A stretch of 48,939 nucleotides of DNA from Escherichia phage vB_EcoS_PHB17. Of this stretch, positions 1-48,792 are shown piece after piece. Every line of letters starts with the position of its first letter. The first letter of the stretch is position 1. Position numbers and translations under genes: made by a program. Under the pieces are notes generated by a model. The model saw only the letters and a program-made list of their open reading frames with translations. It was not told the origin of the DNA and searched no databases. The stretch lies in sequence record NC_054892.1. One strand, written 5' to 3'.

Positions 1-142
1 GTGAAACCTGGTCTGCTTGAGTCAACTTTTCGCTCGCGTCACGGTGTCTTGTCTGCTTTTGTTCTATCGCGTTCACGTGTTAACCATCCGCAAAAAACGG
101 AAACAAAAAAATACAAATAGAATCCTATAACATACTAAAAAA

Positions 143-194
143 TAAGAGTATTTTATTTATATATATCTAAATATAGTTATTTGTTCACAGTGTT
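143..194. repeat. AT-rich element, copy A
   Basis: TAAGAGT..TTATTTATATATATCTA..TTGTTCACAGTGTT, shared with 30147-30200. Confidence 0.65.
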
Positions 195-199
195 CCATA

Positions 200-310
200 G
201 GTATATGGATACCCCCATATCATTTATGATTATGGTGGGTATCCATGGTTAATAAATGAACTGTTGCGCTCGCCAGGTTACATATACATATAATAGGGGG
301 TATATGGCGC
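200..310. repeat. cluster of direct and inverted GC-rich repeats
   Basis: GGTATATGG at 200 and 299; GGATACCCCCATA (207-219) imperfectly inverted as TATGGTGGGTATCC (231-244). Confidence 0.6.
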
Positions 311-490
311 AAACTCCGCAAATTAGGAACACGATTTGTAAAACACTGAAATGTAAGAAATTAAACGCTGAAACGCGTGCGCAAATTTAAAAAATCGAGT
401 TGTGAACAATCATAGACGATAAAAAACAGTTGACACGACATTAATCCACCAGCATAATGCAGCCGTCCCAACCAATCAGGAGGAAACACG

Positions 491-958
491 ATGCAAGAAC
501 AAACATTTAGCGACAATCTGCGTGGTGCGGCTCGCGCCTTGGCAAGTGGCGAGAAGGATAAAATCGTTATCCCATCCGGCGTAATTGAAATGGTTCTGGC
601 GGGCAAGAGCGCGGCTAAAAATCCAGCAAGCTATATCCGCACGACGATGAACCGAGTGCCGGAGGTGAAAGCTGTCGGCTCAATCAAGATCAAGAAAAGC
701 TATTGTGAGGATGAGGATAGCGATCACTACGGAAGTGACATTTACACACTTACGATTGTAAAAGGCGGTCGCAAAACGGTTTACACAAAGGCAGACGTTG
801 AGCGCATCAAGGCGCAAGCGGTAAGCAAGGCGGTTGAGCGATTCTTAACGCTATCCCCTAGCCTGGCAAACTACACACAAGAAGAATACGCCACTGTTGC
901 AAAAGTAATGGGCGAGATTAACGCGCTCGTTAAGGTTAACTTTGAGGTCGAGGAGTAA
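491..958 (+). CDS. hypothetical early protein (155 aa)
   Basis: ORF with AGGAGG about 8 nt upstream of ATG; first gene after the noncoding hub. Confidence 0.6.
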   Translation: MQEQTFSDNLRGAARALASGEKDKIVIPSGVIEMVLAGKSAAKNPASYIRTTMNRVPEVKAVGSIKIKKSYCEDEDSDHYGSDIYTLTIVKGGRKTVYTKADVERIKAQAVSKAVERFLTLSPSLANYTQEEYATVAKVMGEINALVKVNFEVEE

Positions 959-963
959 TCACA

Positions 964-1209
964 ATGCAATACATGAAAATCAAGCAAATGACAGACGACG
1001 CAATCAAAACCGCCTCCGCAGAGGGGAGGCTATTCAGGCTCGTAAGGTCGAATAAATCAATGCCCCTGAAAGTAAAGCCATTCGAATTGCATAAACCTGG
1101 ATGTAAATGCACAAGCGATGGTGGCGATTATTGGCCTGACTGCATGAATACCATCAACATTGCAAGGGCGGCGATTAAGAAAGGTAATTTATTCCTGGGG
1201 GTGAAGTAA
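964..1209 (+). CDS. hypothetical protein (81 aa)
   Basis: ORF; GAGGAG upstream; tightly packed after previous gene. Confidence 0.5.
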   Translation: MQYMKIKQMTDDAIKTASAEGRLFRLVRSNKSMPLKVKPFELHKPGCKCTSDGGDYWPDCMNTINIARAAIKKGNLFLGVK

Positions 1210-1529
1210 TGCAAAAGTTCAAAGTGGTGTTAGGCGCAATCATGGTTGTTGCTGGCGTCGTCATGCTGACTGGTTGCGACGGCGACACCAGGACGCCGGA
1301 ACATGCACGCATCAAAATGCAGGTTGAAACGGGAGCAGATCACAACCGCGTTAGCGTGCGCAAGTTGACAGAGTTTGCTGACGGCCTGGCGTACAACGAC
1401 AAGCGCGGGATTTACCTTATCACCGATAAGCAAACGGGCAAGGAATACATTGGCGTTTCTGGTGTCGGTATCACCGAAACAGGATCGCACGCTTGCGGAA
1501 AGGGTTGCACACGCCAGGATGAGCGATAG
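1209..1529 (+). CDS. putative lipoprotein (106 aa)
   Basis: N-terminal hydrophobic segment ending in lipobox LTGC followed by Asp at +2 (CDGD); start overlaps previous stop. Confidence 0.6.
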   Translation: MQKFKVVLGAIMVVAGVVMLTGCDGDTRTPEHARIKMQVETGADHNRVSVRKLTEFADGLAYNDKRGIYLITDKQTGKEYIGVSGVGITETGSHACGKGCTRQDER

Positions 1530-1545
1530 CACTTTTTGTTAAAAC
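1526..1545 (+). promoter_or_regulatory. conserved motif copy ATAGCACTTTTTGTTAAAAC
   Basis: Begins on TAG stop of lipoprotein gene; followed by hairpin GGGGTT..AACCCC containing TATAGT. Confidence 0.5.
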
Positions 1546-1600
1546 TCGATCAGGGGGTTGCGATATAGTAACCCCATCGAAACGAAACGAGGATTGCAAA

Positions 1601-1759
1601 ATGGTTACTCTGATTACCTGGGAACACGAAAACAGCCAGCCGGAAGCACGCGAGTTTGAAACGGTTGCTGCTTGCTATCACCTGGCGGCGAATGGCGGTT
1701 TTTACAAGGCGCAGATTGTTAACGAATTTGGAGTTGTTGATTATGAGTTCCACGCCTGA
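1601..1759 (+). CDS. small hypothetical protein (52 aa)
   Basis: ATG 1601 with GAGGA upstream, sits downstream of motif plus hairpin module; below ORF-track size cutoff. Confidence 0.3.
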   Translation: MVTLITWEHENSQPEAREFETVAACYHLAANGGFYKAQIVNEFGVVDYEFHA

Positions 1760-2033
1760 TTTCACCAGCTATACAGCAACGGTTGATTTTGAGGGGTTGA
1801 AATTACCCCTCCCGAACGTGTGCCGATACATAACGCGCGATGAGTTCGGCTTTATCCAGGCCTGGGCGAATAGGCCAACCAAAAACACGGAGCACGGCGG
1901 CTTTGGTGATGGAGAGTTTACGCCGATCACGTTAGGACACCAGCGCGGAGACAATCCCGTTGTTATGCGCAAATATCGCCGCAGCCGTAGTAACTGCCTT
2001 ATCTCAATTTTTGGCATCATTCCGCCACGATAG
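1743..2033 (+). CDS. hypothetical protein (96 aa)
   Basis: In-frame ATG 1743 (MSSTPDF) overlapping stop of the 52-aa ORF; longer track start 1656 lacks RBS. Confidence 0.45.
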   Translation: MSSTPDFTSYTATVDFEGLKLPLPNVCRYITRDEFGFIQAWANRPTKNTEHGGFGDGEFTPITLGHQRGDNPVVMRKYRRSRSNCLISIFGIIPPR

Positions 2034-2049
2034 CACGAATTGCTAAAAC
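2030..2049 (+). promoter_or_regulatory. conserved motif copy ATAGCACGAATTGCTAAAAC
   Basis: Overlaps TAG stop; followed by hairpin CCAGG..CCTGG and CATAAT. Confidence 0.5.
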
Positions 2050-2104
2050 AGCCAGGTGAAAGCCTGGCATAATAGCCCCAACGACAACAAACGAGGAAAG
2101 CACA

Positions 2105-2350
2105 ATGAAAAACGTAACCGTAAAACTCATCAACCACGGCGGCTATGATGGATTGAAACACCTGGAATTCCCAATCGAGGTGCAAGGAAAATTGCATGAG
2201 GCCTTGGGTTACATCGATGTGCCAATGAGTGAGCTTGAGCGTATCGGGTACGACAAAGTAAAAGGCCAGATCGCAGAGGTCAAGGATTGCGCAGAGGGTA
2301 GCGACGATTTGACATTCTTCCAGGGTAGCGAGGCGGTAGTAATCGGCTAA
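2105..2350 (+). CDS. hypothetical protein (81 aa)
   Basis: ORF with GAGGAA upstream; preceded by motif and hairpin. Confidence 0.5.
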   Translation: MKNVTVKLINHGGYDGLKHLEFPIEVQGKLHEALGYIDVPMSELERIGYDKVKGQIAEVKDCAEGSDDLTFFQGSEAVVIG

Positions 2351-2370
2351 ATAGCACGAAATGTTAAAAG
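2351..2370 (+). promoter_or_regulatory. conserved motif copy ATAGCACGAAATGTTAAAAG
   Basis: Directly after TAA stop; hairpin GGGGATT..AATCCCC containing TATAAT. Confidence 0.5.
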
Positions 2371-2426
2371 GGGATTTGCTCTGAGCGGTATAATCCCCAC
2401 ATCGAAACAACACAGAGGAACACAAA

Positions 2427-2597
2427 ATGAAATCTCGCGAATATCGTAACATCAACAATTCCCTGGTCTACTGGCTGGAGAACGGCGAGGTTTTGGTTCG
2501 ACATCCAGAAACAGGAAAAGTGATCCGTTCAGGATATAGCGCGGAGACTTTCTTTGTGATGGTTGGCAACGACACGCTGGAATTGATTGAAGAATGA
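2427..2597 (+). CDS. small hypothetical protein (56 aa)
   Basis: ATG 2427 with AGAGGAA upstream after motif and hairpin; below track cutoff. Confidence 0.35.
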   Translation: MKSREYRNINNSLVYWLENGEVLVRHPETGKVIRSGYSAETFFVMVGNDTLELIEE

Positions 2598-2676
2598 GCG
2601 CATTAACTTTCTTTCATGCCGTCACCTGGGCGGCGTTGTTCACCTGGCTATTCACTCACTACTAACGGAGAGATTC

Positions 2677-3216
2677 ATGATTGAGTTTGAAATTTGGGGC
2701 AAGACCTACCGCCTACCAACGCCAAACAAAGGGGTTGTGATTGTCGATTATGATGGCACGCTTTCGGACGGTGCGCACCGCTTGCACCTGTTGCCAACAA
2801 AGGATCTGCATTTAACTGAATCCTGGAGTGAGTTTAATCGCGCGGCAATTCACGACACGCCAATCAGAGATACGATAGCCGTAATCAATGGCCTTTGGGT
2901 ATCCGGTTTCGCCGTTATCGTGCTAACAGGCCGTAGCGATGAGGTAGAGCGTGAATCTCACGAATGGCTAAACTACCACGGCGTCAAATACGATTACATG
3001 ATCATGCGCCGCGCCACTGATAACCGCAAAGACACGATCATCAAAGAGGAGGTGTTACGCGCGATAGGGCTTGAAAACATCGTGTGCGCCTTTGACGATT
3101 CGCCGTCTGTTATCCCATTTATGCGCAGCCTGGGGATCACAACATACGCGGTCACGCATTACGAGCAACCGCATTCACATTTGCAGAGTCACGGCGTGGA
3201 GGAGTTGCCAGAATGA
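2677..3216 (+). CDS. HAD-superfamily phosphatase / nucleotidase-like protein (179 aa)
   Basis: HAD motif I VIVDYDGTL, motif II VLTGR, C-terminal DDS; GGAG RBS before ATG 2677. Confidence 0.65.
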   Translation: MIEFEIWGKTYRLPTPNKGVVIVDYDGTLSDGAHRLHLLPTKDLHLTESWSEFNRAAIHDTPIRDTIAVINGLWVSGFAVIVLTGRSDEVERESHEWLNYHGVKYDYMIMRRATDNRKDTIIKEEVLRAIGLENIVCAFDDSPSVIPFMRSLGITTYAVTHYEQPHSHLQSHGVEELPE

Positions 3217-3368
3217 TTAGCGCATGGTTTTTGGTGTCGATCACATATTACTGCGGGTTGCAGCCGATTGAATTTACCAGCCACAAGGCTTGCATTGAGG
3301 CGCGGGAGACTATCAAAAAGAACACTCCAGGCAGTTGGGCTAATATTTACGTTTGCGTGAAGAAATAG
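3213..3368 (+). CDS. small hydrophobic protein (51 aa)
   Basis: ATG overlaps stop of phosphatase gene (ATGA); hydrophobic N-terminus. Confidence 0.3.
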   Translation: MISAWFLVSITYYCGLQPIEFTSHKACIEARETIKKNTPGSWANIYVCVKK

Positions 3369-3381
3369 AGGGTTTATCGAA

Positions 3382-3564
3382 ATGATGCAAGACAAGTACG
3401 GCGATCACATTCGCATTTACACCACGGAAAGCAAGCAAAACGTTTTTGTTGATTGCTCCTATGAGGATTCACCGGAAAAACTACAGTTTCGCGCCGTCCT
3501 GGGCTTGCGTGAAGCCAGGGAGCTTGTGCGGCAATTGCAAAAGGCAATGGGAGAGCTTGAGTAA
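3382..3564 (+). CDS. hypothetical protein (60 aa)
   Basis: ORF in operon context. Confidence 0.4.
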   Translation: MMQDKYGDHIRIYTTESKQNVFVDCSYEDSPEKLQFRAVLGLREARELVRQLQKAMGELE

Positions 3565-3637
3565 TGAGCACAACACAAATGATTGTCCTGGCGGCAATCA
3601 TGATCACCAACAGCATTGTAATTTCGTTGCTTATCCA

Positions 3638-3657
3638 ATAGCACGAATTGCTAAAAC
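3638..3657 (+). promoter_or_regulatory. conserved motif copy ATAGCACGAATTGCTAAAAC
   Basis: Exact consensus; followed by hairpin with TATAGT. Confidence 0.5.
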
Positions 3658-3711
3658 ACGAAATCGTGGTTGCGGTATAGTAACCAAATACCAAACAACG
3701 AGGAACTAAGC

Positions 3712-3969
3712 ATGAAAACTTTAGAGCAGATTTTCACCGAAATTGAAAAGCACGGCGTTACCGCCAAAAACAAGATCTTAACCAGTGGCGCAACTCACCT
3801 GGCGCAAGATAGCGACGGCGCTGTTTACGGCTACAAGGGAAAGCCAAAGCACATGCAGGATTTTGAAGAATGGCAATCCGGCGACGGTGAAGATAGCCGC
3901 GCTGTGATTTATTGCGGCGAGTTTGCAGAGCCGGAAAACTGGAAAGTGTGTGTTTGGGAATTACCATAA
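3712..3969 (+). CDS. hypothetical protein (85 aa)
   Basis: ATG 3712 (MKTLEQ) with ACGAGGAA RBS, downstream of motif and hairpin. Confidence 0.5.
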   Translation: MKTLEQIFTEIEKHGVTAKNKILTSGATHLAQDSDGAVYGYKGKPKHMQDFEEWQSGDGEDSRAVIYCGEFAEPENWKVCVWELP

Positions 3970-4032
3970 GACTTTCCGCAAGGCTGTTTTCGAGCGGCCT
4001 TATTGAAAGCAACCAACAAAGGAGAAATGAGA

Positions 4033-4611
4033 ATGGCTAAAATCATCGTACTGAATGCACCGCCAGGAGCGGGAAAGGACACAATCGGAGGGCTGGTTAA
4101 AGATGAGTCGCCAGTGCCTTTGCGCCTGTTGAGCTTCAAAGAGCCAATGTTTGAAATTGCGCTCGCTATCCTGGGGCCTGGTAAGTATCGCGATTTCTTG
4201 ACGGCATACAACGACCGCGAGCAGAAAGAAAAGCCGCATGACTTCCTGAATGGTATGACTTGCCGCGAGTTCATGATCTGGATTAGTGAGGACGTGATGA
4301 AGCCGCGATTTGGTAATGGGTATTTCGGCAAGCGGTTTGCAGAGGAAGCGGAGCGCAACGACATTCCAGTTATTTGCACCGATGGCGGATTCCCTGACGA
4401 AATCATAGAGTTAATACGTGGCGGTCATGAGGTGAAAGTTTGCCGACTACATCGCCAGGGTTACACCTTTCAGGGAGATAGCCGCGATTACATCCGAATC
4501 AGTAGCGCGCGCGACAACGCCAGTGGATGCCGTGAATATGATTACACGTTGACGGATGGCAATCCAATGCAAACGGTGCGTCAAATTATCGCTGACCACC
4601 TGGCGAAATAG
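4033..4611 (+). CDS. P-loop nucleotide kinase (dNMP kinase-like, 192 aa)
   Basis: Walker A NAPPGAGKDT close to N-terminus, resembling phage deoxynucleoside monophosphate kinases; AAAGGAG RBS. Confidence 0.6.
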   Translation: MAKIIVLNAPPGAGKDTIGGLVKDESPVPLRLLSFKEPMFEIALAILGPGKYRDFLTAYNDREQKEKPHDFLNGMTCREFMIWISEDVMKPRFGNGYFGKRFAEEAERNDIPVICTDGGFPDEIIELIRGGHEVKVCRLHRQGYTFQGDSRDYIRISSARDNASGCREYDYTLTDGNPMQTVRQIIADHLAK

Positions 4612-4627
4612 CACGAATTGCTAAAAG
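4608..4627 (+). promoter_or_regulatory. conserved motif copy ATAGCACGAATTGCTAAAAG
   Basis: Overlaps TAG stop of kinase gene; TATAAT at 4646-4651. Confidence 0.5.
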
Positions 4628-4681
4628 CGTGGCGAAAGGCTCCGCTATAATGCACACATACCAACAAAAGAGGAACACAAG

Positions 4682-5083
4682 ATGAAGAAAGAAATCCTGA
4701 AGTTAGGCAAAGGCTCCGTCATGCGCTGCATTAATTCAGATCTGAATTGCTTTAAGGTTGGCGAGAACTACATCACCGGAAAGCGACTGTTTATCGGAAA
4801 TCGCCATATCGGGATCGGTCGATTCATAGTGAACCACCACAAAAACGGCTATTTCGGCATTGAGGATTTGAGCGGCGTTATCGCGCGTTTCGTACTGGTC
4901 AAGGATAGCAAAGGCCGTTATGCGAAACACGACACTAAGCCTAACCCACACAAAGACCGTCGAAACGGCAAGCGCGATGCTCGACGCTTCCGCCGCTACG
5001 CTCGCCAGATGTTGAAGTGTGACAAACCAGGCACTTTGGAGTATAAAGTTATCTCAAATTTGGCGCGTAACGTAGGGAAATGA
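4682..5083 (+). CDS. hypothetical protein (133 aa)
   Basis: ORF with AAGAGGAA RBS after motif and hairpin. Confidence 0.5.
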   Translation: MKKEILKLGKGSVMRCINSDLNCFKVGENYITGKRLFIGNRHIGIGRFIVNHHKNGYFGIEDLSGVIARFVLVKDSKGRYAKHDTKPNPHKDRRNGKRDARRFRRYARQMLKCDKPGTLEYKVISNLARNVGK

Positions 5084-5173
5084 CATGCACGCAAAACCAC
5101 CATTTGATTTTCACAAGGCCGTTTTAATCGGCCTTACCATTCTAACAGTGATGTACAGCATAAGGGGTGTTCT

Positions 5174-5425
5174 ATGGTTCGCAACGCATTAAAACGACTC
5201 ATCAAACCAGTTTACCGCGTGGTTGTGGAAATGAGTGAGAGCGGCGCGGTATACGTCCAGCGTAAAAACATGTTCGGTAATGGCTGGCACTATATCAGCG
5301 ATGTGTTCGGCGCGATTGAGTTTGAAAGCGTCGTTAGCGCCTGGGCTTACATCGAAGTGATGCACGAATACCGAGAATATGAATGCTCTATTCTGATCCG
5401 GTTTGATTGCGAGGGTTTAGAATAA
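5174..5425 (+). CDS. hypothetical protein (83 aa)
   Basis: ORF with AAGGGG upstream. Confidence 0.5.
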   Translation: MVRNALKRLIKPVYRVVVEMSESGAVYVQRKNMFGNGWHYISDVFGAIEFESVVSAWAYIEVMHEYREYECSILIRFDCEGLE

Positions 5426-5607
5426 TGTGGAACTGGAAAAAGCTGTTACTGACCGTTTTTCTTGCCCTGCTTGGTTCAACGCTGATTGAAGGTTTTACTA
5501 ACTTCCTGGGTGCGTTGGTTATGGCAATCGCCTATTCGATCCCGTCCTACTATGACGGCAAGAAAGCCGGAGGCCGTGAAGTGTTCGAGCTAATCAAGCG
5601 CAAATAG
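5425..5607 (+). CDS. small membrane protein (60 aa)
   Basis: ATG 5425 overlapping previous stop; two hydrophobic helices; stop TAG is part of motif copy. Confidence 0.45.
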   Translation: MWNWKKLLLTVFLALLGSTLIEGFTNFLGALVMAIAYSIPSYYDGKKAGGREVFELIKRK

Positions 5608-5623
5608 CACGAATTGCTAAAAC
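5604..5623 (+). promoter_or_regulatory. conserved motif copy ATAGCACGAATTGCTAAAAC
   Basis: Overlaps TAG stop; hairpin AGGAGCA..TGCTCCT containing TTATAG. Confidence 0.5.
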
Positions 5624-5688
5624 TAAATCAGGAGCATTTGTTATAGTGCTCCTCGTTGAGTTAAGCAACCAATCAAGGAGAAAAGGAA

Positions 5689-5970
5689 ATGGCAAGCATC
5701 CGTAAACACCTGGTCAACGCATTTGAGAATTTCGCAATCAGCATGGGCTGGGAGGATAGCGCAAAGCATAAACGCGGTATTCGTCATTGTGGCTATAAGA
5801 ATTCCCGCCAGTGGGCACGAATGATGGCTGAGATTTACGAGGAGCCGTTAAGCGTTGGCGGCTGGAATAGCGCAATCATCGAAATGATCGAGGAGGCGGC
5901 GCGTACCGATACCCCGCTAACGCAACACGACTACGACGCATTTGTAGAGGAGGAAATTTCATGCTGGTAA
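5689..5970 (+). CDS. hypothetical protein (93 aa)
   Basis: ORF with AAGGAG RBS after motif and hairpin. Confidence 0.5.
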   Translation: MASIRKHLVNAFENFAISMGWEDSAKHKRGIRHCGYKNSRQWARMMAEIYEEPLSVGGWNSAIIEMIEEAARTDTPLTQHDYDAFVEEEISCW

Positions 5971-6176
5971 GTGAAATGCCGAAAACGGTTAAGATTCGCA
6001 CTGATTACAACGGCTCGCCGTGGATTCAGGCGAACAAGGTTTACGAGGCAACGTTAGAGGAAACTGGTAACTTTGCCGGATGTTATAAAGCAATGGGCGA
6101 GCTTAAATCGCCTTTCTATACGCGGCTTGAACATTCCGTTCATATCGGCGGTCAAGATTGGGAGATTGTAGAATGA
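5961..6176 (+). CDS. hypothetical protein (71 aa)
   Basis: ORF with GAGGAGG RBS, overlaps previous gene. Confidence 0.5.
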   Translation: MLVSEMPKTVKIRTDYNGSPWIQANKVYEATLEETGNFAGCYKAMGELKSPFYTRLEHSVHIGGQDWEIVE

Positions 6177-6913
6177 AATACGTAAAACCTACCACTAACG
6201 GCGTTGATTTCACGGCTGGCAAACTTTACGAAGTGATCAAAGAGATTTCAGGCGCTCGCGTTATCGTTAAAAACGACGAAGGGGAGGAGGTTATTGTAAG
6301 GATTGACGGAAAAGAATCAGTGCGCCTTAATTGGCCTGGAAAGTTCAACCTGGTTGAATTCCCCACTATTTCGGAAGCCGTTAAACATGTAACGGCGTCA
6401 GTGTTGAGAACTGAGTGCAATCCGGGCGGAACCATCTATAACGCAGTGAGAGAAAGTGATCACTTAAAGGCGGCTCGCCAAATCGCTGATAACGCGGCAA
6501 AGCTGGCGGCTCAAGTTGCATACCCGAAAAACGGTTATTTCCTCAATAGCAAAGGCCAGTTGGAGCAGTGGCAGAATGGGGAGCTTGTTGTGACAATCGG
6601 CAACGTTGATTCTACGGCGGCAAAAGGTGAGGGTTGGCGCGTTCACAATGCAGGTATGCAAATCACTAGCGGAAACTTTAAACCGAGAGAGCTAACCGTT
6701 GTCCTGAATGGTAAGCAGTACACCGAAAGCCAGATCGCAAAGCTGGAAAAGGAAGCGGAACAACACAAGGCTGATTGCATCAAGGCGGAGGCTGTTATTG
6801 ATCAGCTTTATGACATGTTTCCGCAAGTGCGAAATGCAGAGCAACTAATTGCAGCCGTCAAGAGTGCGAAAATCTTCTCTGATGCGTTTCTTGAACTGCA
6901 AAAAGTCAAATAG
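6173..6913 (+). CDS. hypothetical protein (246 aa)
   Basis: ATG 6173 overlapping previous stop; long ORF ending in TAG of motif copy. Confidence 0.55.
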   Translation: MKYVKPTTNGVDFTAGKLYEVIKEISGARVIVKNDEGEEVIVRIDGKESVRLNWPGKFNLVEFPTISEAVKHVTASVLRTECNPGGTIYNAVRESDHLKAARQIADNAAKLAAQVAYPKNGYFLNSKGQLEQWQNGELVVTIGNVDSTAAKGEGWRVHNAGMQITSGNFKPRELTVVLNGKQYTESQIAKLEKEAEQHKADCIKAEAVIDQLYDMFPQVRNAEQLIAAVKSAKIFSDAFLELQKVK

Positions 6914-6929
6914 CACGAATTGCTAAAAC
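6910..6929 (+). promoter_or_regulatory. conserved motif copy ATAGCACGAATTGCTAAAAC
   Basis: Overlaps TAG stop; hairpin GAGGACA..TGTCCTC. Confidence 0.5.
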
Positions 6930-6989
6930 TTCCGCGAGGACATTTGTTAAAGTGTCCTCATTGAAGCGAAGCACACAAAGGAGCTTAAA

Positions 6990-7202
6990 ATGAAAATTCG
7001 AATCACCAAAGTTGACATTGACCGCAACGACGGAAGTATTACCCTGGAGCAATGCGGGTTTAAAGTTGGTGACATTGTGGAGGTTGACGGATTCTTTCGC
7101 GATGGTTCTTACTGCGTGTTAGCAATCCGCAACACAGAAGAAATCCGAATCGGTGATAACATCGGCGTAAACCATGACGAATGCGAGGTAGTAGAAGAAT
7201 GA
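6990..7202 (+). CDS. hypothetical protein (70 aa)
   Basis: ORF with AAAGGAG RBS. Confidence 0.5.
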   Translation: MKIRITKVDIDRNDGSITLEQCGFKVGDIVEVDGFFRDGSYCVLAIRNTEEIRIGDNIGVNHDECEVVEE

Positions 7203-7435
7203 TCACGATTAACCTTTCACGCGAGCAAGCAGAAATTTTTATGAGCACAGTTGGCGAATTCGCCACGATTAACGGTGTTGTAGCTGAAATCTCAAGCCAG
7301 ATTGAAAATCAGATTTTCCCGCGCACAACTGATGCGGCAGGGCTGGCTGTGTGGAAGCACGAAAGCGGATTGAATGATCGACTGATTGAGCAGTGGAAGC
7401 GCAAACACGAAACGGCGGAGGAGGTGGGGTTATGA
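7199..7435 (+). CDS. hypothetical protein (78 aa)
   Basis: ATG 7199 overlapping previous stop (ATGA). Confidence 0.45.
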   Translation: MITINLSREQAEIFMSTVGEFATINGVVAEISSQIENQIFPRTTDAAGLAVWKHESGLNDRLIEQWKRKHETAEEVGL

Positions 7436-7755
7436 TTTGGATTCATCGCTTTGAAATGTCAAGCGGTCACGGAAAGCGCCAGGTAACGAAAGTTTATGAT
7501 CGAGATGATGTGGCGCTTGAGAATCAAATGCTTTTGGGCGGAGAGCTTGAGGAGTACGAATCTGTTGCACTAATCCAGGCAATCAACGATCTGGTTTTAG
7601 ATGAGGTTTCTTGTCTAATTGACGACATGAGCACTCCAGGTTTAGGATCGCCGCGAGAACTTGAGGCGGGTTCGCCGGAGTGGGATTGTTGGAAGGTTAA
7701 AACGCTCAACAACATTCGAAACATCCTTTATGGAAAATTTGAAAAAATAGCATAG
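7432..7755 (+). CDS. hypothetical acidic protein (107 aa)
   Basis: ATG 7432 after GGAGGAGG; D/E-rich. Confidence 0.5.
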   Translation: MIWIHRFEMSSGHGKRQVTKVYDRDDVALENQMLLGGELEEYESVALIQAINDLVLDEVSCLIDDMSTPGLGSPRELEAGSPEWDCWKVKTLNNIRNILYGKFEKIA

Positions 7756-7759
7756 TGTG

Positions 7760-7795
7760 AAAGCGCCTCAAACGCATTCTAAGAGGCGCTAAATT
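7760..7795 (+). terminator. terminator-like hairpin
   Basis: GCGCCTC..GAGGCGC stem with 13-nt loop and weak T tract. Confidence 0.35.
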
Positions 7796-7940
7796 TAGCA
7801 AGGTGATTGCATGGATAACTACGAAAAACCGTCGCAGTGGTGCGCACGTAAGCAAAATGAAGCATTAGAGACTGGCGACCAACAAGCCGCTTTAAATTAC
7901 TTTCAGATGTATCAACTATGGGTTAGCAGAGGGCTTTAAA

Positions 7941-8171
7941 ATGTTTGGACTGAATGAAGCGCATTGGAATGTTGTTAAGCGTGCGGCGCGTGGCTTGAAT
8001 GATGCGATCAGTGAGCTACCGAAAGAGCAGCGCAAAAACGAGAAGGTTGTAATTGACGTGATCACCAAACATCACAAACCTGTTGAGCTTTTGATTGATC
8101 GCTACAAGTTTGTTTGGACTGCTGGTTATCTGGCGGGGCGTGTTGGTTCGAAAAGTGCGGATTACGAATAA
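7941..8171 (+). CDS. hypothetical protein (76 aa)
   Basis: ORF after small 42-aa ORF (7811-7939). Confidence 0.45.
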   Translation: MFGLNEAHWNVVKRAARGLNDAISELPKEQRKNEKVVIDVITKHHKPVELLIDRYKFVWTAGYLAGRVGSKSADYE

Positions 8172-8175
8172 GCTG

Positions 8176-8204
8176 TTGACTATAGCCGCGCTGATTGGTA
8201 ACAT
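8176..8204 (+). promoter_or_regulatory. candidate sigma70-like promoter TTGACT-N17-TAACAT
   Basis: Hexamers in intergenic region 8172-8335. Confidence 0.3.
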
Positions 8205-8335
8205 TCACCACGTAAACAAAAGAGCGGCCTAGCAGCCGAACGAGTAGCGCGATAGCTACACGACAACGTCGGCGTGCATGGTGTTTTCGCCCTATAAGAC
8301 GCGTCGCCATTTTTACCCATTCAGGAGTAAACGCA

Positions 8336-8494
8336 ATGACAAAAGAAGTCGCAAAGGTAACAATCATCATTGAGCGAAACGGCGTAAAAACCAAATTCAA
8401 AAAGCGCTTCAAGAAAGGCGATGCCGCATTAGGCCGTGTTGGTGACTTCATGATCAAGTTGCAGGAAGATAAACCGGATGAAGTGGAAAGTTAA
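8336..8494 (+). CDS. small basic protein (52 aa)
   Basis: ATG 8336 with CAGGAG RBS; below track cutoff. Confidence 0.3.
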   Translation: MTKEVAKVTIIIERNGVKTKFKKRFKKGDAALGRVGDFMIKLQEDKPDEVES

Positions 8495-8662
8495 ATTAAC
8501 GATCCGTCGCATGGGGCGCAATTGCTCCTCATGCCGTCAAGAATTCGAATGCGAGGTTGAAGCGCAAAACACTGTTGACGCGATTCAATGCGCTAAAGTT
8601 CTATCAGGTGCAGATCCAGAAACGCACCAGTTTTCAATAAACTTTGTAAGAGGTATTTAATC

Positions 8663-8893
8663 ATGATGATGTTTGGTTTTGGTTTTGTGGCTGCAATTGT
8701 TGTGCTGATCCTGTTAAGCCGTTTCGCTCTAAACTACGCGGTTAAAAAAGGCTGGTACGCCTCCGCGATCTGGAATGAAAAAGAGAAGGTTTGGAAGGTT
8801 CGCGGTCGATACCTTAGCATTGCAGGTAAGATTTTCGACGGCATTCAAAATAAACGGGCTGGTGAACCTGGTTCCGTCAAGTATCTGGATTAA
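8663..8893 (+). CDS. small membrane protein (76 aa)
   Basis: N-terminal transmembrane helix; AAGAGG RBS; followed by strong terminator. Confidence 0.45.
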   Translation: MMMFGFGFVAAIVVLILLSRFALNYAVKKGWYASAIWNEKEKVWKVRGRYLSIAGKIFDGIQNKRAGEPGSVKYLD

Positions 8894-8897
8894 CAAC

Positions 8898-8923
8898 TAA
8901 CCCCGCGTTTGCGGGGTTTTTTA
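8898..8923 (+). terminator. rho-independent terminator
   Basis: CCCCGC-GTTT-GCGGGG stem followed by TTTTTT. Confidence 0.8.
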
Positions 8924-8965
8924 TTGCCTGTTATAATCGGACTCCAACAAAGGAGGGCAATTATC

Positions 8966-9487
8966 ATGGCTAAAAACGTCGAACCTGCTGTAAAGGCATT
9001 GAATTTTAAAGAGCTATACAATAAGAAATATGGCGACATTGCGCGATTGAGCAACGCGCACACACTTACGCCGGAGCAAGTTTTTGATCTGGCGGTTCGC
9101 TATTTTGAATGGGCGGAAAAAAATCACATTGAAGCGGCGGAAACTGCATCCTTTCAGGGCGATGTATACGAATCAAAAATCCATAAGCCGCGAATCTTTA
9201 CCCTTAACGGCTTGCGCCTGTTTTGCGGATTCTCTGAGGCCGTTACTCTGAAATGGCGCAGGGAGCCAGGATTCAGCGAAGTGATGGAATTCATCGACAC
9301 GGTAATCAATGAGCAGAAATTCCAGCTTGCGGCGAATAACCTTGTAAACGCCTCGTTTATCGCCAAAGATATTGGCGTTGATAAGCCAGCAAGCATTAAC
9401 GTTGAAGCAAACGCAAACGCCAGCGTTGACGCAGTGACGGCGGAAGAAGTAAAAGACGCGGTGCGGGATATCTTAGGAGAAATCTGA
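8966..9487 (+). CDS. putative terminase small subunit (173 aa)
   Basis: ATG 8966 after AAGGAGG; sits immediately upstream of terminase large subunit; assigned by position only. Confidence 0.5.
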   Translation: MAKNVEPAVKALNFKELYNKKYGDIARLSNAHTLTPEQVFDLAVRYFEWAEKNHIEAAETASFQGDVYESKIHKPRIFTLNGLRLFCGFSEAVTLKWRREPGFSEVMEFIDTVINEQKFQLAANNLVNASFIAKDIGVDKPASINVEANANASVDAVTAEEVKDAVRDILGEI

Positions 9488-9489
9488 TC

Positions 9490-11058
9490 ATGCTTATTTG
9501 GGAAGATTTGACAGCGGCGCAGAAACGCGCCATTAAAGAAATGAGCGAGCTTTCATTTGAAAAGATGATCCGCATATGGTTTCAACTCCTGCAAGGCCAG
9601 AAGTTTTTAAGCAACTGGCATTTCAGCTACCTATGCAGTGAGGTAGAGAAAATCATTTCCGGCGAATCGCAAAACGTGATCTTTAACATCACGCCAGGTT
9701 CGGGTAAAACGGAAATCTTTTCGATCCATATGTCGCCGTATGCGTCAATCAAAAGCAAAAAGGTGCGCAACCTTAATCTTTCGTTTAGTGATGGCCTGGT
9801 GCAACAGAACAGCAACAGGATCAAGGAGATTGTTGGATCTCCAGAGTGGCAAGAGTTATGGCCTGGCAAGCTGGCGAAAGCCAGCGCCAAAGATCTGATT
9901 GTGCAGGACGAAAACGGGAAAGTTAAGTTGCAGGTGAATTCCCGTTCAATTGGTGGACAGGTTACGGGCTTGCGTGGCGGCTATATGGATGATGGTTTTA
10001 CGGGGATGTTGGTACTTGACGATCCAGACAAACCAGATGATATGTTTTCGAAGGTGCGCCGTGAAGCAATGCAAATGCGCCTAAAAAACACCGTGCGATC
10101 ACGTCGAATGAAAGACACAACGCCAATCGTAATGGTTCAGCAGCGGCTACACGTCAATGATTCTACTTACTTCATGACAAGCGGCGGCATGGGCGGCATT
10201 CAGTTTAAAGTTGTGAGCATTCCGGCGCTAGTTACGAAAGAATACCGCGAAACGCTTCCTGAGTGGTTAATTCCTGAATTTGATCGTGATGTGCTGACAA
10301 GCGAGCCTGTTTATATTGACGGCGTGGCGCATTACTCTTTTTGGCCTGCAAAGGAGAGCGCAAAAGACCTTTTAGCGCTACGCGAGGCCGACCCATACAC
10401 TTTTGCATCACAGTATCAGCAGCATCCTATAGCGTTAGGCGGCAACGTGTTTAAAGTGGATTGGTTCCAGTATTACGGCGACGGCGAGAAATGCACGCTA
10501 CCAAAACCGGAACGCTTTGAGTACACATTTATTACGGCGGATACAGCGCAAAAAGTAGGCGAGCTAAACGACTACACTGTTTTCTGTTATTGGGGCATGT
10601 ACAAAAACCGCGTTTACTTCATTGATGGCGTGCGCGGCAAATGGGAAGCGCCAGACCTTGAAACAAACTTTGTGGCTTTCGTTAATCAGTGCTGGAAGCG
10701 CAACAAAGAATGCGGCTCCTTGCGTAGAATCCACGTCGAGGATAAAGCGAGCGGAACGGGCTTGATTCAGGGGGCAAAGAAAAAGATCCCTATTGATATA
10801 AATCCCGTTCAGCGCAACACGGACAAAGTAACACGCGCGATGGATGCAGCACCAGTTATGAGGGCGGGGCGCGTTGCATTGCCTGAAAACCATCCAATGC
10901 TTGCGGAGCTACTCGCAGAGGTGGCTGCGTTCACGTTCGATGATTCTCATCCAAACGACGATATCGTTGATAACATCGTTGATGCGGTCAACGTGGAAAT
11001 GAACCTCGCAGACGATCCGGTTGCACGCATGAAAAAACTGGCTGGATTGAAGAAATAG
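9490..11058 (+). CDS. terminase large subunit (522 aa)
   Basis: ATPase P-loop TPGSGKTE in N-terminal half, acidic nuclease-type C-terminal half; first of packaging/head genes. Confidence 0.85.
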   Translation: MLIWEDLTAAQKRAIKEMSELSFEKMIRIWFQLLQGQKFLSNWHFSYLCSEVEKIISGESQNVIFNITPGSGKTEIFSIHMSPYASIKSKKVRNLNLSFSDGLVQQNSNRIKEIVGSPEWQELWPGKLAKASAKDLIVQDENGKVKLQVNSRSIGGQVTGLRGGYMDDGFTGMLVLDDPDKPDDMFSKVRREAMQMRLKNTVRSRRMKDTTPIVMVQQRLHVNDSTYFMTSGGMGGIQFKVVSIPALVTKEYRETLPEWLIPEFDRDVLTSEPVYIDGVAHYSFWPAKESAKDLLALREADPYTFASQYQQHPIALGGNVFKVDWFQYYGDGEKCTLPKPERFEYTFITADTAQKVGELNDYTVFCYWGMYKNRVYFIDGVRGKWEAPDLETNFVAFVNQCWKRNKECGSLRRIHVEDKASGTGLIQGAKKKIPIDINPVQRNTDKVTRAMDAAPVMRAGRVALPENHPMLAELLAEVAAFTFDDSHPNDDIVDNIVDAVNVEMNLADDPVARMKKLAGLKK

Positions 11059-11076
11059 CACTAATTGCTAAAAAAC
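11055..11076 (+). promoter_or_regulatory. conserved motif copy ATAGCACTAATTGCTAAAAAAC
   Basis: Overlaps TAG stop of terminase large subunit; followed by TGATATAAT and terminator hairpin. Confidence 0.5.
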
Positions 11077-36000: not shown

Positions 36001-36006
36001 AGTGTT

Positions 36007-36450
36007 TTAGCTATTTGTGCTGTTTTCAAAGTCGGACGCACGAACAACGCGGAGCATTTCGCGCTTTTCACACTTGAGTGTAAGCGGTTTTCCGTTGCTA
36101 TCAAATTTCAGATCTGGGCGGCAGAATGAAGCGCGATAACCCTTGCAGCCTTGCCGCTTGTAATCTTGATGCACCTTTTGAGCGCCTTGCGCTGAAATCA
36201 TTCCGCGTTTCTTCCATTGCTGGATCGTCTGAAACGACACTTTAAGGCGGCGTGCCATTTCTGATTGAGTGCCATAATATTCTAACAGGATGTCAAGCCG
36301 CGCACGCAATCCGGCCTTTACTTCATCTTTCAGCACGTAGTAACCTGTTTTGCGGCGGCGTGGCTTTTTGTCTTTTCCGCGTCGAGTTCCGTTATTACCA
36401 TTGATTGTGCGTTTATCTACTTCACCAGTTGAAACAGCGATTCTTTTCAT
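36007..36450 (-). CDS. helix-turn-helix DNA-binding protein (147 aa)
   Basis: HTH segment QSEMARRLKVSFQTIQQWKKRG; basic N-terminal region; start at MKRIAVS. Confidence 0.6.
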   Translation of the reverse strand: MKRIAVSTGEVDKRTINGNNGTRRGKDKKPRRRKTGYYVLKDEVKAGLRARLDILLEYYGTQSEMARRLKVSFQTIQQWKKRGMISAQGAQKVHQDYKRQGCKGYRASFCRPDLKFDSNGKPLTLKCEKREMLRVVRASDFENSTNS

Positions 36451-38542: not shown

Positions 38543-38962
38543 ATGGTTACTGACAAGGGCGATTATCTGGAGTATTACGAGCGCGATCCGAGCGACACGC
38601 GAAAGGAAGATTCTCACCAGGTTGATTGTGTGGCGTGGTTGCGCCACTTTTATCCCTGGCTTTTATTCTGGCATACAGTAAACGAGGGGCAAAAGACGAT
38701 CACCAGCGCATTGAGGGATGAGCAAGCAGGATTGAGAAAGGGCGTTAGTGATTTCGTTATCCTGATTGGTATTAACAGCCGTTACCCATTCGCGGCTATT
38801 GAACTAAAGCGCGTAAACAAGTCTGGTAAAGGCAAGGCGTCACCAGTCAGCGACGAACAAAAGGGATTTTTACGCGATGTTCGCCAGCGTGGAGGATTCG
38901 CGGCGGTGGCTTACGGATTCGAGCAATTCAAATTAGCGATTGCAGATCTTTTGCATAAATAG
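38543..38962 (+). CDS. VRR-NUC domain nuclease (139 aa)
   Basis: DFVIL ... ELK PD-(D/E)xK-type motif; GGGAG RBS. Confidence 0.6.
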   Translation: MVTDKGDYLEYYERDPSDTRKEDSHQVDCVAWLRHFYPWLLFWHTVNEGQKTITSALRDEQAGLRKGVSDFVILIGINSRYPFAAIELKRVNKSGKGKASPVSDEQKGFLRDVRQRGGFAAVAYGFEQFKLAIADLLHK

Positions 38963-38978
38963 CACGAATTGCTAAAAC
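38959..38978 (+). promoter_or_regulatory. conserved motif copy ATAGCACGAATTGCTAAAAC
   Basis: Overlaps TAG stop of VRR-NUC gene; hairpin GGCGCA..TGCGCC then CATAAT. Confidence 0.5.
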
Positions 38979-39148
38979 AGGCGCAACGGAATGCGCCATA
39001 ATGCACACATCGAAACAAACAAGGAATTAATCATGAAATACATTTTTAATATGGCGGCAAGCGTTGTATTGGGAGCGGCGGTTACTGCTTTCTTTTTGTG
39101 GGTTATCTCCCTGGCTGGCAACTTTAACGGATTTTGAGGATCAGAAAA

Positions 39149-40125: not shown

Positions 40126-40145
40126 ATAGCACTAATTGCTAAAAC
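40126..40145 (+). promoter_or_regulatory. conserved motif copy ATAGCACTAATTGCTAAAAC
   Basis: Directly after TAA stop; hairpin CCCGC..GCGGG. Confidence 0.5.
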
Positions 40146-40377: not shown

Positions 40378-40615
40378 AACAGGACGCCAGGCAGTTTGGC
40401 AACACGCAAAGGAATGCGGGTTAGATGAGAAAATAGCACTAATTGCTAAATACTTCGACATCAAGGATGTTAGTATTATTGGCAACGGCAAGATGTCATA
40501 TATTGACGAAAGGCCGCGAAAGGTTCACAGGGTTCCCGCCGTTCCATCAATCCAGTTTTTCAGGGATGAAAAGGCAAAGGCGGAGGCCGCAAAGAAAGCA
40601 CAAAAAAGAAGGTAG
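40367..40615 (+). CDS. hypothetical basic protein (82 aa, GTG start)
   Basis: ORF with alternative start; a motif copy is translated in frame as IALIAKY. Confidence 0.3.
   Translation: MKVETGRQAVWQHAKECGLDEKIALIAKYFDIKDVSIIGNGKMSYIDERPRKVHRVPAVPSIQFFRDEKAKAEAAKKAQKRR
40433..40452 (+). promoter_or_regulatory. conserved motif copy inside a predicted ORF
   Basis: ATAGCACTAATTGCTAAATAC lies within ORF 40367-40615. Confidence 0.4.
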
Positions 40616-47386: not shown

Positions 47387-47442
47387 TGCTTTGTTCCTTC
47401 GTTAGTTGGTATGCGCCCATTATACAAGGAGCGAAAAACTTG

Positions 47443-47461
47443 TTTTAGCAAAAAGTGCTAT
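47443..47461 (-). promoter_or_regulatory. conserved motif copy, minus strand
   Basis: Followed on minus strand by TGTATAATG about 22 nt after TTGCTA, then RBS and ATG 47386. Confidence 0.55.
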
Positions 47462-48716: not shown

Positions 48717-48773
48717 TTCCGTTTTCCTCAATTCTTTTCGATGAAGTAACTATACCAAATCCGATCCGATCCG

Positions 48774-48792
48774 TTTTAGCAAAAAGTGCTAT
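48774..48792 (-). promoter_or_regulatory. conserved motif copy, minus strand
   Basis: Upstream of first gene of minus early operon (ATG 48716). Confidence 0.5.

Follow-up and report, generated by a model that had tools for sequence, protein, structure and literature searches.

A conserved HAD phosphatase and deoxynucleotide monophosphate kinase gene pair of a T1-like phage that probably manages free deoxynucleotides rather than healing nucleic-acid ends

The genome of Escherichia phage vB_EcoS_PHB17 (NC_054892.1), a T1-like (Drexlerviridae) phage, carries a HAD phosphatase gene and a P-loop kinase gene close to each other. The question is whether the two proteins act on free nucleotides or on the ends of nucleic acids. 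The window analysed here is the whole 48.9-kb sequence (48,939 nucleotides). A sequence-only reading of it had proposed that both are simple nucleotide-metabolism enzymes and had considered an end-healing role unsupported. We propose, with a probability of about 0.7, that the pair is a conserved T1-like module in which a HAD phosphatase gene precedes a dNMP kinase gene, that it serves to control the pool of free deoxynucleotides in infection, and that it is not an end-healing-and-sealing system. Our analysis also refines the earlier reading in two ways. The HAD protein is predicted to belong to the Pnkp/Dmp type of phosphatases in particular, and the two genes form a conserved module that is fused in some cases and has been linked in the literature to the Kongming defence system.

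Both proposed genes, the phosphatase with DYDGT and the kinase with GAGKDT, were recovered on the + strand (Table 1), and their family matches are far beyond chance. The spacing, given before as about 800 bp among small genes, is 816 bp from the HAD stop to the kinase start, and three small + strand ORFs fill this gap. The intervening genes vary in the relatives: W011D has other ORFs there, and Tunavirus and Rao1 have none. A GGAGAG ribosome-binding site lies 6 nt upstream of the HAD ATG, and an AAGGAG site precedes the kinase start. In addition, the kinase homologues begin at the same MAKII. Copies of a conserved element flank both cassettes, and Rao1 has the same element placement at the end of its kinase gene (39040-39059). 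Scans of positions 1-9000 for sigma-70 promoters and terminators gave no enrichment over shuffled sequences. The label "early" for this gene block is presumptive and based only on T1-like synteny and the flanking promoter-like elements.

Table 1. Features of the phosphatase-kinase locus (positions in the window)
Feature	Position	Strand	Basis
Conserved intergenic element copy (ATAGCACGAAaTGtTAAAAg ... TATAAT), upstream of the HAD cassette	2351..2398	+	
56-aa small ORF, first of the HAD-containing cassette	2427..2597	+	phrog_18792 (4e-14), PHROG without assigned function
HAD phosphatase, putative stand-alone Pnkp/Dmp type (DxDxT), 179 aa	2677..3216	+	PF25109, phrog_415
HAD motif I DYDGT (predicted D24 nucleophile, D26 acid/base), residues 24-28	2746..2760	+	Alignment to T4 Pnkp D165/D167 and T5 Dmp D22/D24; roles from PMC3592404
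51-aa small ORF, overlaps the HAD stop	3213..3368	+	phrog_5579 (4.3e-9), PHROG without assigned function
60-aa small ORF between HAD and kinase	3382..3564	+	phrog_14011 (6.9e-11), PHROG without assigned function
Conserved intergenic element copy (ATAGCACGAATTGCTAAAAC ... TATAGT), upstream of the kinase cassette	3638..3685	+	
85-aa small ORF immediately 5' of the kinase	3712..3969	+	Weak matches to PHROGs without assigned function
Deoxynucleotide monophosphate kinase (DNK), predicted, 192 aa	4033..4611	+	Identity to R1DNK and KarlJaspers DNK, phrog_139, fold
Kinase Walker A P-loop GAGKDT (K15), residues 12-17	4066..4083	+	Family-wide alignment
Conserved element copy, overlaps the kinase stop codon	4608..4627	+	

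The kinase matched phrog_139 (E = 6.1e-43, profile positions 82-262) and had no match in Pfam. Phage T4 gp1 matched the same PHROG (1.8e-65) over the same span (positions 83-261). In full-length comparisons, the kinase was 47% identical to R1DNK of phage Rao1 (gp58, XGX96911.1; BLASTP, E = 1e-56) and 50% identical to the DNK of phage KarlJaspers (QXV82329.1; E = 5e-68). It shares with both of them the motifs GxGKDT, SFKxPMF, YxDRxxKE, RxFMIWISExxxKPxFG, DGGF, and RLHRxGxxFxGDSRxY, and their source phages are of the Drexlerviridae type, as is the window phage. R1DNK phosphorylates dAMP, dGMP, and dCMP well, dTMP more weakly, and dIMP poorly, and its K15A mutant is inactive (bioRxiv 10.1101/2024.12.20.629578). 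In an alignment of 36 diverse family members, G14, K15, and D16 of the window kinase are conserved in at least 90%. The window kinase is orthologous to dNMP kinases whose activity on free dNMPs has been demonstrated, and its own conversion of dNMPs to dNDPs is predicted. This orthology, together with membership in the T4 gp1 family, supports the earlier proposal of nucleotide-metabolism enzymes. Furthermore, in distant phages the kinase homolog adjoins genes for RNR, thymidylate synthase, nucleoside deoxyribosyltransferase, or DNA polymerase.

The AF2 model of the kinase (pLDDT 92) has an NMP-kinase (adenylate-kinase-like) fold. A Foldseek search with this model found archaeal adenylate kinases at E of about 5e-6, and the best TM-score belonged to T4 gp1 (PDB 1dek, TMq 0.66). 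Sequence and profile searches against PDB chains returned nothing beyond P-loop noise and missed T4 gp1, and hhalign aligned the narrow kinase-family profile with T4 gp1 over just 36 columns with 24% probability. Because this direct profile comparison is weak, the link between gp1 and the kinase rests on phrog_139 and the fold. T4 gp1 also has the GKDT P-loop and a collinear order of motifs. However, its identity to the window kinase is about 13% in the structural alignment, it has an insertion of about 50 aa of its own, the Arg of its "DTR" motif aligns with "DGGF" of the window kinase family, and sequence profiles barely join the two families.

The kinase is a member of the T4 gp1 family and not of the Pnkp kinase family. 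T4 Pnkp matched phrog_505 and phrog_2071, not phrog_139, and the kinase-family HMM aligned with it at the P-loop only (14 bits). Meanwhile, T4 Pnkp was not among the top 50 Foldseek matches of the kinase model. The segment placed at D35 of T4 Pnkp, the general base that follows strand beta2 and activates a 5'-OH, is the invariant S34-F35-K36, which has no acidic residue; the placement is by secondary-structure position and not by superposition.

The phosphatase scored 65.3 bits (cutoff 27.6) with the Pfam family PF25109 (HAD_PNKP), in a match that spans positions 3-139 of the 143-position profile, and its best PHROG match was phrog_415 (E = 1.1e-61). Its residues D24, D26, T28, T84, K123, and D140-D141 align with T4 Pnkp D165, D167, T169, S211, K258, and D277-D278, and R35, R86, D119, and D140 match the conserved T4 Pnkp R176, R213, D254, and D277. 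In T4 Pnkp, D165, D167, S211, K258, and D278 are named phosphatase residues (PMC3592404). With the AF2 model (pLDDT 85), the top PDB folds were Pnkp1 (4xrp/4xru, E = 5e-9) and T4 Pnkp (5uj0/1ltq, 3e-8 and 1e-7), and there was no 5'-nucleotidase structure in the top 50 fold matches. As judged from its sequence, the protein is a stand-alone Pnkp-type DxDxT phosphatase with a complete set of catalytic residues, and its predicted substrate is a 5'- or 3'-phosphate. The usual label "polynucleotide kinase" is a misnomer, since the protein has no kinase domain. This label is found on the HAD gene in hundreds of phage genomes, yet the protein falls into the family of the T5 5'-deoxynucleotidase.

Known phosphatases resemble the window HAD in different ways. 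The C-terminal 3'-phosphatase domain of T4 Pnkp (1LTQ, 5UJ0) and Capnocytophaga Pnkp1 (4XRP) have in common with it PF25109, the fold, and all catalytic residues. However, the window HAD lacks a kinase domain in its polypeptide, its genome has no partner ligase, its motifs I and II lie about 14 residues further apart, and it has an N-terminal beta-hairpin. The spacing of motifs I and II is 60 residues in the window HAD, 64 in T5 Dmp, and 46 in T4 Pnkp. T5 Dmp (YP_006829.1), a proven 5'-dNMP phosphatase (deoxynucleoside-5'-monophosphatase), is a full-length member of phrog_415 (3.6e-57). In common with the window HAD, it has DxDGT-x6-HR and an insertion that follows motif I (33% identity over 49 residues), and it is a stand-alone enzyme of a phage that also encodes a DNK. 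On the other hand, T5 Dmp is longer (244 aa against 179 aa), and the window HAD lacks both its internal insertion of 24 aa and its C-terminal extension of about 70 aa. BLASTP between the two proteins covered residues 20-67 only, with 24 bits, and similarity did not extend over the full length. T5 Dmp had no match to Pfam HAD_PNKP, and a Drexlerviridae HAD profile (HMM) scored T4 Pnkp at 38 bits and T5 Dmp at 14 bits. Because this profile favours T4 Pnkp and HAD_PNKP misses T5 Dmp, the window HAD may have polynucleotide 3'-phosphatase activity.

Closer relatives are the stand-alone HADs Rao1 gp57 (61% identical), the Krischvirus AV108 "3'-phosphatase" (39-40%), and phage P1 Pap (36-37%), which are close in length to the window HAD and have the cap insertion. 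No biochemical characterisation of these three proteins was found in the searched literature. They differ in genomic partner: Drexlerviridae pair the HAD with a DNK, and Krischvirus pairs it with nrdAB.

The order HAD then kinase, within about 1.1 kb, was found in at least 537 annotated phage records. For instance, the two genes are adjacent in SH6 and in Rao1, where gp57 lies directly upstream of R1DNK. The location differs: the Rao1 pair lies between exonuclease and lysis genes, whereas the window pair is in the left-arm early block and is split by the three small ORFs. In addition, there are two natural metagenomic fusion proteins with the HAD N-terminal and the DNK C-terminal. A single tblastn piece spanned both genes in Tunaviruses, and read-through or fusion was considered for them. 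It was rejected, as the 108-nt spacer of SH6 has four stop codons. Using a narrow Drexlerviridae-HAD profile, which also misses T5 Dmp at threshold so that distant HADs could escape it, we found no HAD within 4 kb of the DNK homologs in four distant phage lineages. Therefore, the coupling of HAD and DNK may be lineage-restricted.

In the proposed module, the DNK, with ATP and the P-loop K15, would turn dNMPs from host-DNA breakdown into dNDPs, as is shown for its orthologs. The host NDK would then raise the dNDPs to dNTPs for phage DNA synthesis. The same DNK activity would supply the dITP alarm signal of the bacterial Kongming system. Meanwhile, the HAD would act as a Mg2+-dependent aspartyl-phosphate phosphomonoesterase of the Pnkp/Dmp clade, most likely on free deoxynucleotides and not on nucleic-acid ends. 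It could take off 5'-phosphates, like T5 Dmp, or 3'-phosphates, like the T4 Pnkp phosphatase on 3'-dNMP. For the larger part, this is a routine addition: one more T1-like phage with the usual dNMP kinase of the family and a companion HAD phosphatase. The conserved order and the rare fusions make the phosphate choice of the HAD a worthwhile biochemical question.

A 5'-dNMPase beside, or fused to, a dNMP kinase would mean an awkward competition for one substrate, and this is a point against the module reading.

The conservation of gene order and the natural fusions of HAD, linker, and DNK could also point to one functionally coupled unit and not to two housekeeping enzymes that work independently. 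This could be a two-step salvage, with a 3'-phosphatase supplying the dNMP kinase, or a safety valve with which T1-like phages retain a DNK and do not set off dNMP-based immune sensors like Kongming. We consider such a unit unlikely and mention it tentatively. If true, it would be a new bifunctional phosphatase-kinase architecture with the domain order of mammalian PNKP, acting on free deoxynucleotides.

Two more specific explanations separate the possible substrates of the HAD. In the first, the HAD would be a 3'-phosphatase of the T4 Pnkp kind with 3'-dNMP, 3',5'-pdNp, or 3'-phosphorylated host-DNA fragments as substrates, and the 5'-dNMPs released from pdNp would pass to the DNK. The core and the fold of the HAD are closest to 3'-phosphatases, and the fusion order phosphatase-kinase fits consecutive steps better than competing ones. 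Furthermore, T4 Pnkp acts on the mononucleotide 3'-dTMP (PMC3592404). However, a nuclease that generates 3'-phosphates is neither known nor identified in the window phage, and the cap insertion of the HAD is common to the 5'-specific enzyme. We give this sequential salvage a small chance.

In the second, the two genes would form a counter-defence pair. Here the HAD would be a 5'-dAMP phosphatase like Dmp, and its chief task would be to lower dAMP so that the phage's own DNK cannot feed the dITP alarm of Kongming or a similar dNMP-dependent sensor. The DNKs of Rao1, KarlJaspers, and VAC2 trigger the Kongming defence (bioRxiv 10.1101/2024.12.20.629578). Since the window kinase is of this triggering type, Kongming sensitivity is predicted for phages like the window phage, provided that the HAD does not interfere. 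According to published work, Dmp homologs occur together with DNKs, and the Dmps of T5, VPG01, and Bas26 suppress DNK-triggered Kongming toxicity. In addition, T5 Dmp is in the same PHROG as the window HAD and has the motif-I and cap region in common with it, and the linkage of HAD and DNK is tight, with fusions in some cases. However, the window HAD lacks the C-terminal part of about 70 aa of T5-type Dmps and matches them over about 49 residues only. Moreover, Rao1 carries the HAD ortholog gp57 beside R1DNK and is still restricted by Kongming; dAMP accumulates in Rao1 infection, and rescue needs T5 Dmp in trans. This rise of dAMP and the Kongming sensitivity despite gp57 speak against an efficient dAMPase of the Dmp kind. 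Such reasoning loses force with Bas26, which has a functional Dmp and is Kongming-sensitive as well. On this balance, we regard the counter-defence pair as quite unlikely.

An end-healing system would need other partners than those found here. Domain searches found no ligase in any of the 29 window ORFs that are 180 aa or longer, so the earlier statement that no ligase was recognised nearby extends to the full 48.9 kb. The non-structural ORFs of this size carry helicase, primase, Erf, PDDEXK, Dam, methyltransferase, exonuclease, or DUF3987 domains, or had no match. The window contains no tRNA genes, and no ligase is annotated in its relatives W011D and Rao1. The HAD has no polynucleotide 5'-kinase partner in the window, where the only nearby P-loop kinase is the dNMP kinase ortholog. 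With no ligase, no tRNA gene, and a kinase of the wrong family, an end-healing system was rejected, in line with the doubt of the sequence-only reading. The retron Eco2 paper, which mentions Drexlerviridae and polynucleotide kinase, is irrelevant here, as T4 PNK is only a reagent in it.

In mammalian PNKP, the phosphatase domain comes first and the kinase domain follows, and E. coli RtcB joins 3'-P/5'-OH RNA ends directly. A split polynucleotide kinase-phosphatase, whose HAD heals 3'-phosphate or 2',3'-cyclic phosphate ends and whose P-loop protein phosphorylates 5'-OH DNA or RNA ends for sealing by a host ligase (LigA for DNA), would suit a HAD that truly belongs to the Pnkp phosphatase family, a fusion order resembling mammalian PNKP, and the wide annotation of such HAD genes as "polynucleotide kinase", but it is very improbable given that the kinase has proven dNMP kinases as its orthologs and no affinity to the Pnkp kinase family (in PHROG, alignment, or fold), that the genome has neither ligase nor tRNA gene, that healing would be counter-productive beside RtcB, and that Krischviruses retain a full PseT besides a window-type HAD. 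In Krischvirus AV108, in favour of the free-nucleotide reading, the stand-alone HAD gene overlaps the nrdB stop, although the genome also encodes an RNA ligase in addition to the full PseT.

The HAD phosphatase and the P-loop kinase of the window are best explained as a nucleotide-pool module. In this module, the kinase, a deoxynucleotide monophosphate kinase (DNK), would convert the dNMPs from host-DNA breakdown to dNDPs, as shown for its orthologs, and HAD would hydrolyze a phosphomonoester on free deoxynucleotides. The sequence-only reading had placed a DYDGT phosphatase and a GAGKDT kinase about 800 bp apart and suggested simple nucleotide-metabolism enzymes. The ORFs, the motifs, the gap (816 bp, holding three small plus-strand ORFs) and the profile matches agree with this placement, and the orthology of the kinase to characterised dNMP kinases bears out the suggestion. 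HAD matched Pfam PF25109 (HAD_PNKP) with 65.3 bits (cutoff 27.6) and phrog_415 at 1.1e-61, and the kinase matched phrog_139 at 6.1e-43 and nothing in Pfam. Hundreds of T1-like genomes already carry this gene pair in their annotation, and the kinase family has been characterised by experiment; the window adds a new member to the HAD-DNK pairs. The points of interest are modest: the HAD substrate, the HAD-DNK fusions and the phrog_415 label.

Positions of the two genes, of related genes and of the repeated 20-nt element
Feature	Sequence	Position	Strand	Remark
HAD ORF	window	2677-3216	+	179 aa; ribosome-binding site GGAGAG
HAD DYDGT motif	window	residues 24-28	+	ORF translation
Kinase ORF	window	4033-4611	+	192 aa; ribosome-binding site AAGGAG
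Kinase GAGKDT motif	window	residues 12-17	+	ORF translation
HAD-DNK fusion ORF	L002	9143-10354		metagenomic phage contig
HAD-DNK fusion ORF	L003	3908-5119		metagenomic phage contig
HAD-DNK fusion ORF	L004	498-1883		metagenomic phage contig
T5 Dmp	L005	124-858
Stand-alone HAD of AV108	L012	3998-4474		overlaps nrdB stop codon
20-nt element	window	2030-2049, 2351-2370, 3638-3657, 4608-4627, 5604-5623	+
20-nt element	window	6910-6929, 11055-11074, 38959-38978, 40126-40145, 40433-40452	+
20-nt element	window	36004-36023, 47442-47461, 48773-48792	-
20-nt element, weaker copy	window	1526-1573

The decisive evidence on the kinase comes from the study of Kongming, a bacterial defence (KomABC) with a dITP alarm made via phage DNK activity (bioRxiv 10.1101/2024.12.20.629578; cited as Zeng et al., Science, in PMC12967843). 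It characterised R1DNK (gp58 of phage Rao1, whose genome has a T1-like organisation), which used dAMP, dGMP and dCMP efficiently, dTMP less and dIMP minimally, and lost its function with K15A. Furthermore, KomABC toxicity was triggered by R1DNK and by the DNKs of KarlJaspers (Tempevirinae) and Klebsiella phage VAC2 (same study). By orthology, the window kinase is a predicted dNMP kinase, because it shares 47% and 50% full-length identity with R1DNK and KarlJaspers DNK, respectively, and all family motifs are kept.

There were 209 close homologs of the kinase (E<=1e-3), all without a Pfam domain; their contigs of ~50 kb have the size usual for T1-like phages. The family is large, since a profile built from 29 close homologs matched 3,836 cluster representatives. 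AlphaFold modelled the kinase with confidence (pLDDT 92) and gave it the NMP-kinase fold; the model's best matches were archaeal adenylate kinases by E-value and the T4 dNMP kinase gp1 (1dek) by TM-score (0.66), and T4 Pnkp, a kinase-phosphatase, was absent from the best 50. In addition, gp1 and the window kinase matched phrog_139 across one and the same stretch of the profile, and gp1 was collinear with the family HMM both at the P-loop and in the SxR...DxR/DGGF region. However, T4 Pnkp matched phrog_505 and others but not phrog_139, and the HMM aligned it at the P-loop only.

A tblastn search with a natural fusion protein found 537 phage records with HAD then kinase in one joined place. In Tunavirus SH6 the two are separate genes, because the 108-nt spacer contains four stop codons. 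Rao1 and Weberviruses have them side by side but in another part of the genome than the window, between exonuclease and lysis genes (also recorded in PMC13164509), whereas the window and its Tempevirinae relatives have variable small ORFs between them. Meanwhile, metagenomic single-ORF fusions are represented by P0259 (403 aa; on three contigs, of which one is 60.8 kb long) and P0266 (461 aa), whose uninterrupted ORFs run from a HAD_PNKP domain at the N-terminus through a conserved linker (...AAGxxMxKxGxFxGPELHG...) to a DNK domain at the C-terminus. On the 60.8-kb contig the fusion gene neighbours encode Dam methylase, a PAPS-reductase-like protein, RdgC, NinH and Prim-Pol, and no ligase was found among them. 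In four distant phage lineages outside these, no HAD was detectable within 4 kb of the DNK homolog; these DNK homologs adjoin genes for DNA polymerase, exonuclease, DNA ligase, thymidylate synthase, RNR or nucleoside deoxyribosyltransferase.

Among solved structures, the sequence search placed HAD nearest to Capnocytophaga Pnkp1 (1.7e-6) and to the phosphatase domain of T4 Pnkp, and the same two led the fold search (E=5e-9 to 1e-7), with no 5'-nucleotidase structure among the best 50 fold matches. Phage P1 Pap is another homolog. In a 24-sequence alignment, HAD D24, D26, T84, K123 and D141 corresponded to T4 Pnkp D165 (nucleophile), D167 (acid/base), S211 and K258 (phosphate contacts) and D278 (Mg2+) (roles from PMC3592404), and R35, R86, D119 and D140 to T4 R176, R213, D254 and D277. 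HAD should be an active enzyme, since these catalytic positions are conserved.

Like HAD, T5 Dmp belongs to phrog_415 along its full length (3.6e-57); Dmp is the classical deoxynucleoside-5'-monophosphatase and serves T5 as its anti-Kongming factor. Both have a DxDGT-x6-HR motif and the next segment in common (33% identity across 49 residues), and also an insertion, because motif I Asp and motif II Ser/Thr are separated by 60 residues in HAD and 64 in Dmp versus 46 in T4 Pnkp. HAD-superfamily enzymes bear substrate-selecting caps at this position, and we infer that the insertion is tied to substrate choice. However, a Drexlerviridae-HAD profile scored T4 Pnkp at 38 bits (motifs II-IV) and Dmp at only 14 bits, and Pfam HAD_PNKP did not detect Dmp. 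Because these traits and scores conflict, HAD is intermediate, with a 3'-phosphatase on one side and a 5'-deoxynucleotidase on the other, and its sequence does not fix specificity.

HAD may thus be a Dmp-like 5'-dNMPase or a 3'-nucleotidase. For the latter, as a plausibility argument, the fusion architecture makes more sense if a 3'-phosphatase acts first and the kinase second than if the two compete. Against the former, Rao1 infection raises dAMP, which speaks against an efficient dAMPase. In addition, Kongming restricts Rao1 despite the HAD ortholog gp57 of this phage (61% identity, annotated 'polynucleotide kinase', 50 bp upstream of R1DNK), and T5 Dmp in trans rescues Rao1. However, this argument is weakened by Bas26, which is Kongming-sensitive too despite a functional Dmp.

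End healing and sealing is not supported, as the sequence-only reading had held on seeing no ligase nearby, because the window has no tRNA genes in its 48.9 kb, no ligase among its 29 ORFs of at least 180 aa, and a kinase of dNMP type. Those of non-structural type either matched PDDEXK exonuclease, DNA-repair exonuclease, Erf, primase, helicase, DUF3987 helicase, Dam or a second methyltransferase, or had no match; the other long ORFs were the terminase-to-tail block, the tail fibre and antisense overlaps. Furthermore, the T4-like Krischvirus Escherichia phage AV108 has a stand-alone HAD (39-40% identity to HAD) and, a few kb away, full-length PseT and RNA ligase, which argues that the stand-alone type would have a role other than RNA end healing. 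AV108 thus carries two distinct Pnkp-type phosphatases, one inside the ribonucleotide reductase operon. Meanwhile, phrog_415, whose members include Dmp and kinase-less Drexlerviridae HADs, is labelled 'polynucleotide kinase', a misannotation propagated to hundreds of phage genomes.

A 20-nt element, ATAGCACGAATTGCTAAAAC, with a palindromic core (TAGCA-N5-TGCTA), occurred 13 times in the window versus 0.01 expected by chance. In the early block (1-9000), all copies lie on the plus strand, like the genes there, each just upstream of a gene cassette, and the copies at 2351, 3638 and 1526 (weaker) have a TATAGT or TATAAT box ~18-22 nt downstream. It is kept in W011D and Rao1 (8 copies each), and one copy overlaps the DNK stop codon in Rao1 and the window alike. 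The element is a candidate promoter or operator of the phage, with a spacing unlike that of a canonical sigma-70 -35/-10 pair.

The window is a T1-like siphophage genome (48.9 kb) of Drexlerviridae, nearest Tempevirinae. Region 2400-4800 shares 80-82% nucleotide identity with Escherichia phages W011D (same gene order) and PaulSarasin and Klebsiella phage KLB26, and the structural half 81-84% with PaulSarasin, BananaBelafonte and KLB26. The phage is probably an undescribed species in or near Tempevirinae; over 1-48939, these four nearest deposited relatives show only ~81-84%. The largest early-block ORF (6158-6913, 251 aa) had weak matches to PHROGs of unknown function and none in Pfam. In addition, a near-consensus sigma-70 promoter (430-458, TTGACA-17-CATAAT, 11/12 positions) ahead of the first early ORF and a strong bidirectional GC-rich hairpin with a T-run (8899-8918) just ahead of the small terminase gene bracket the entire small-gene block with HAD and kinase.
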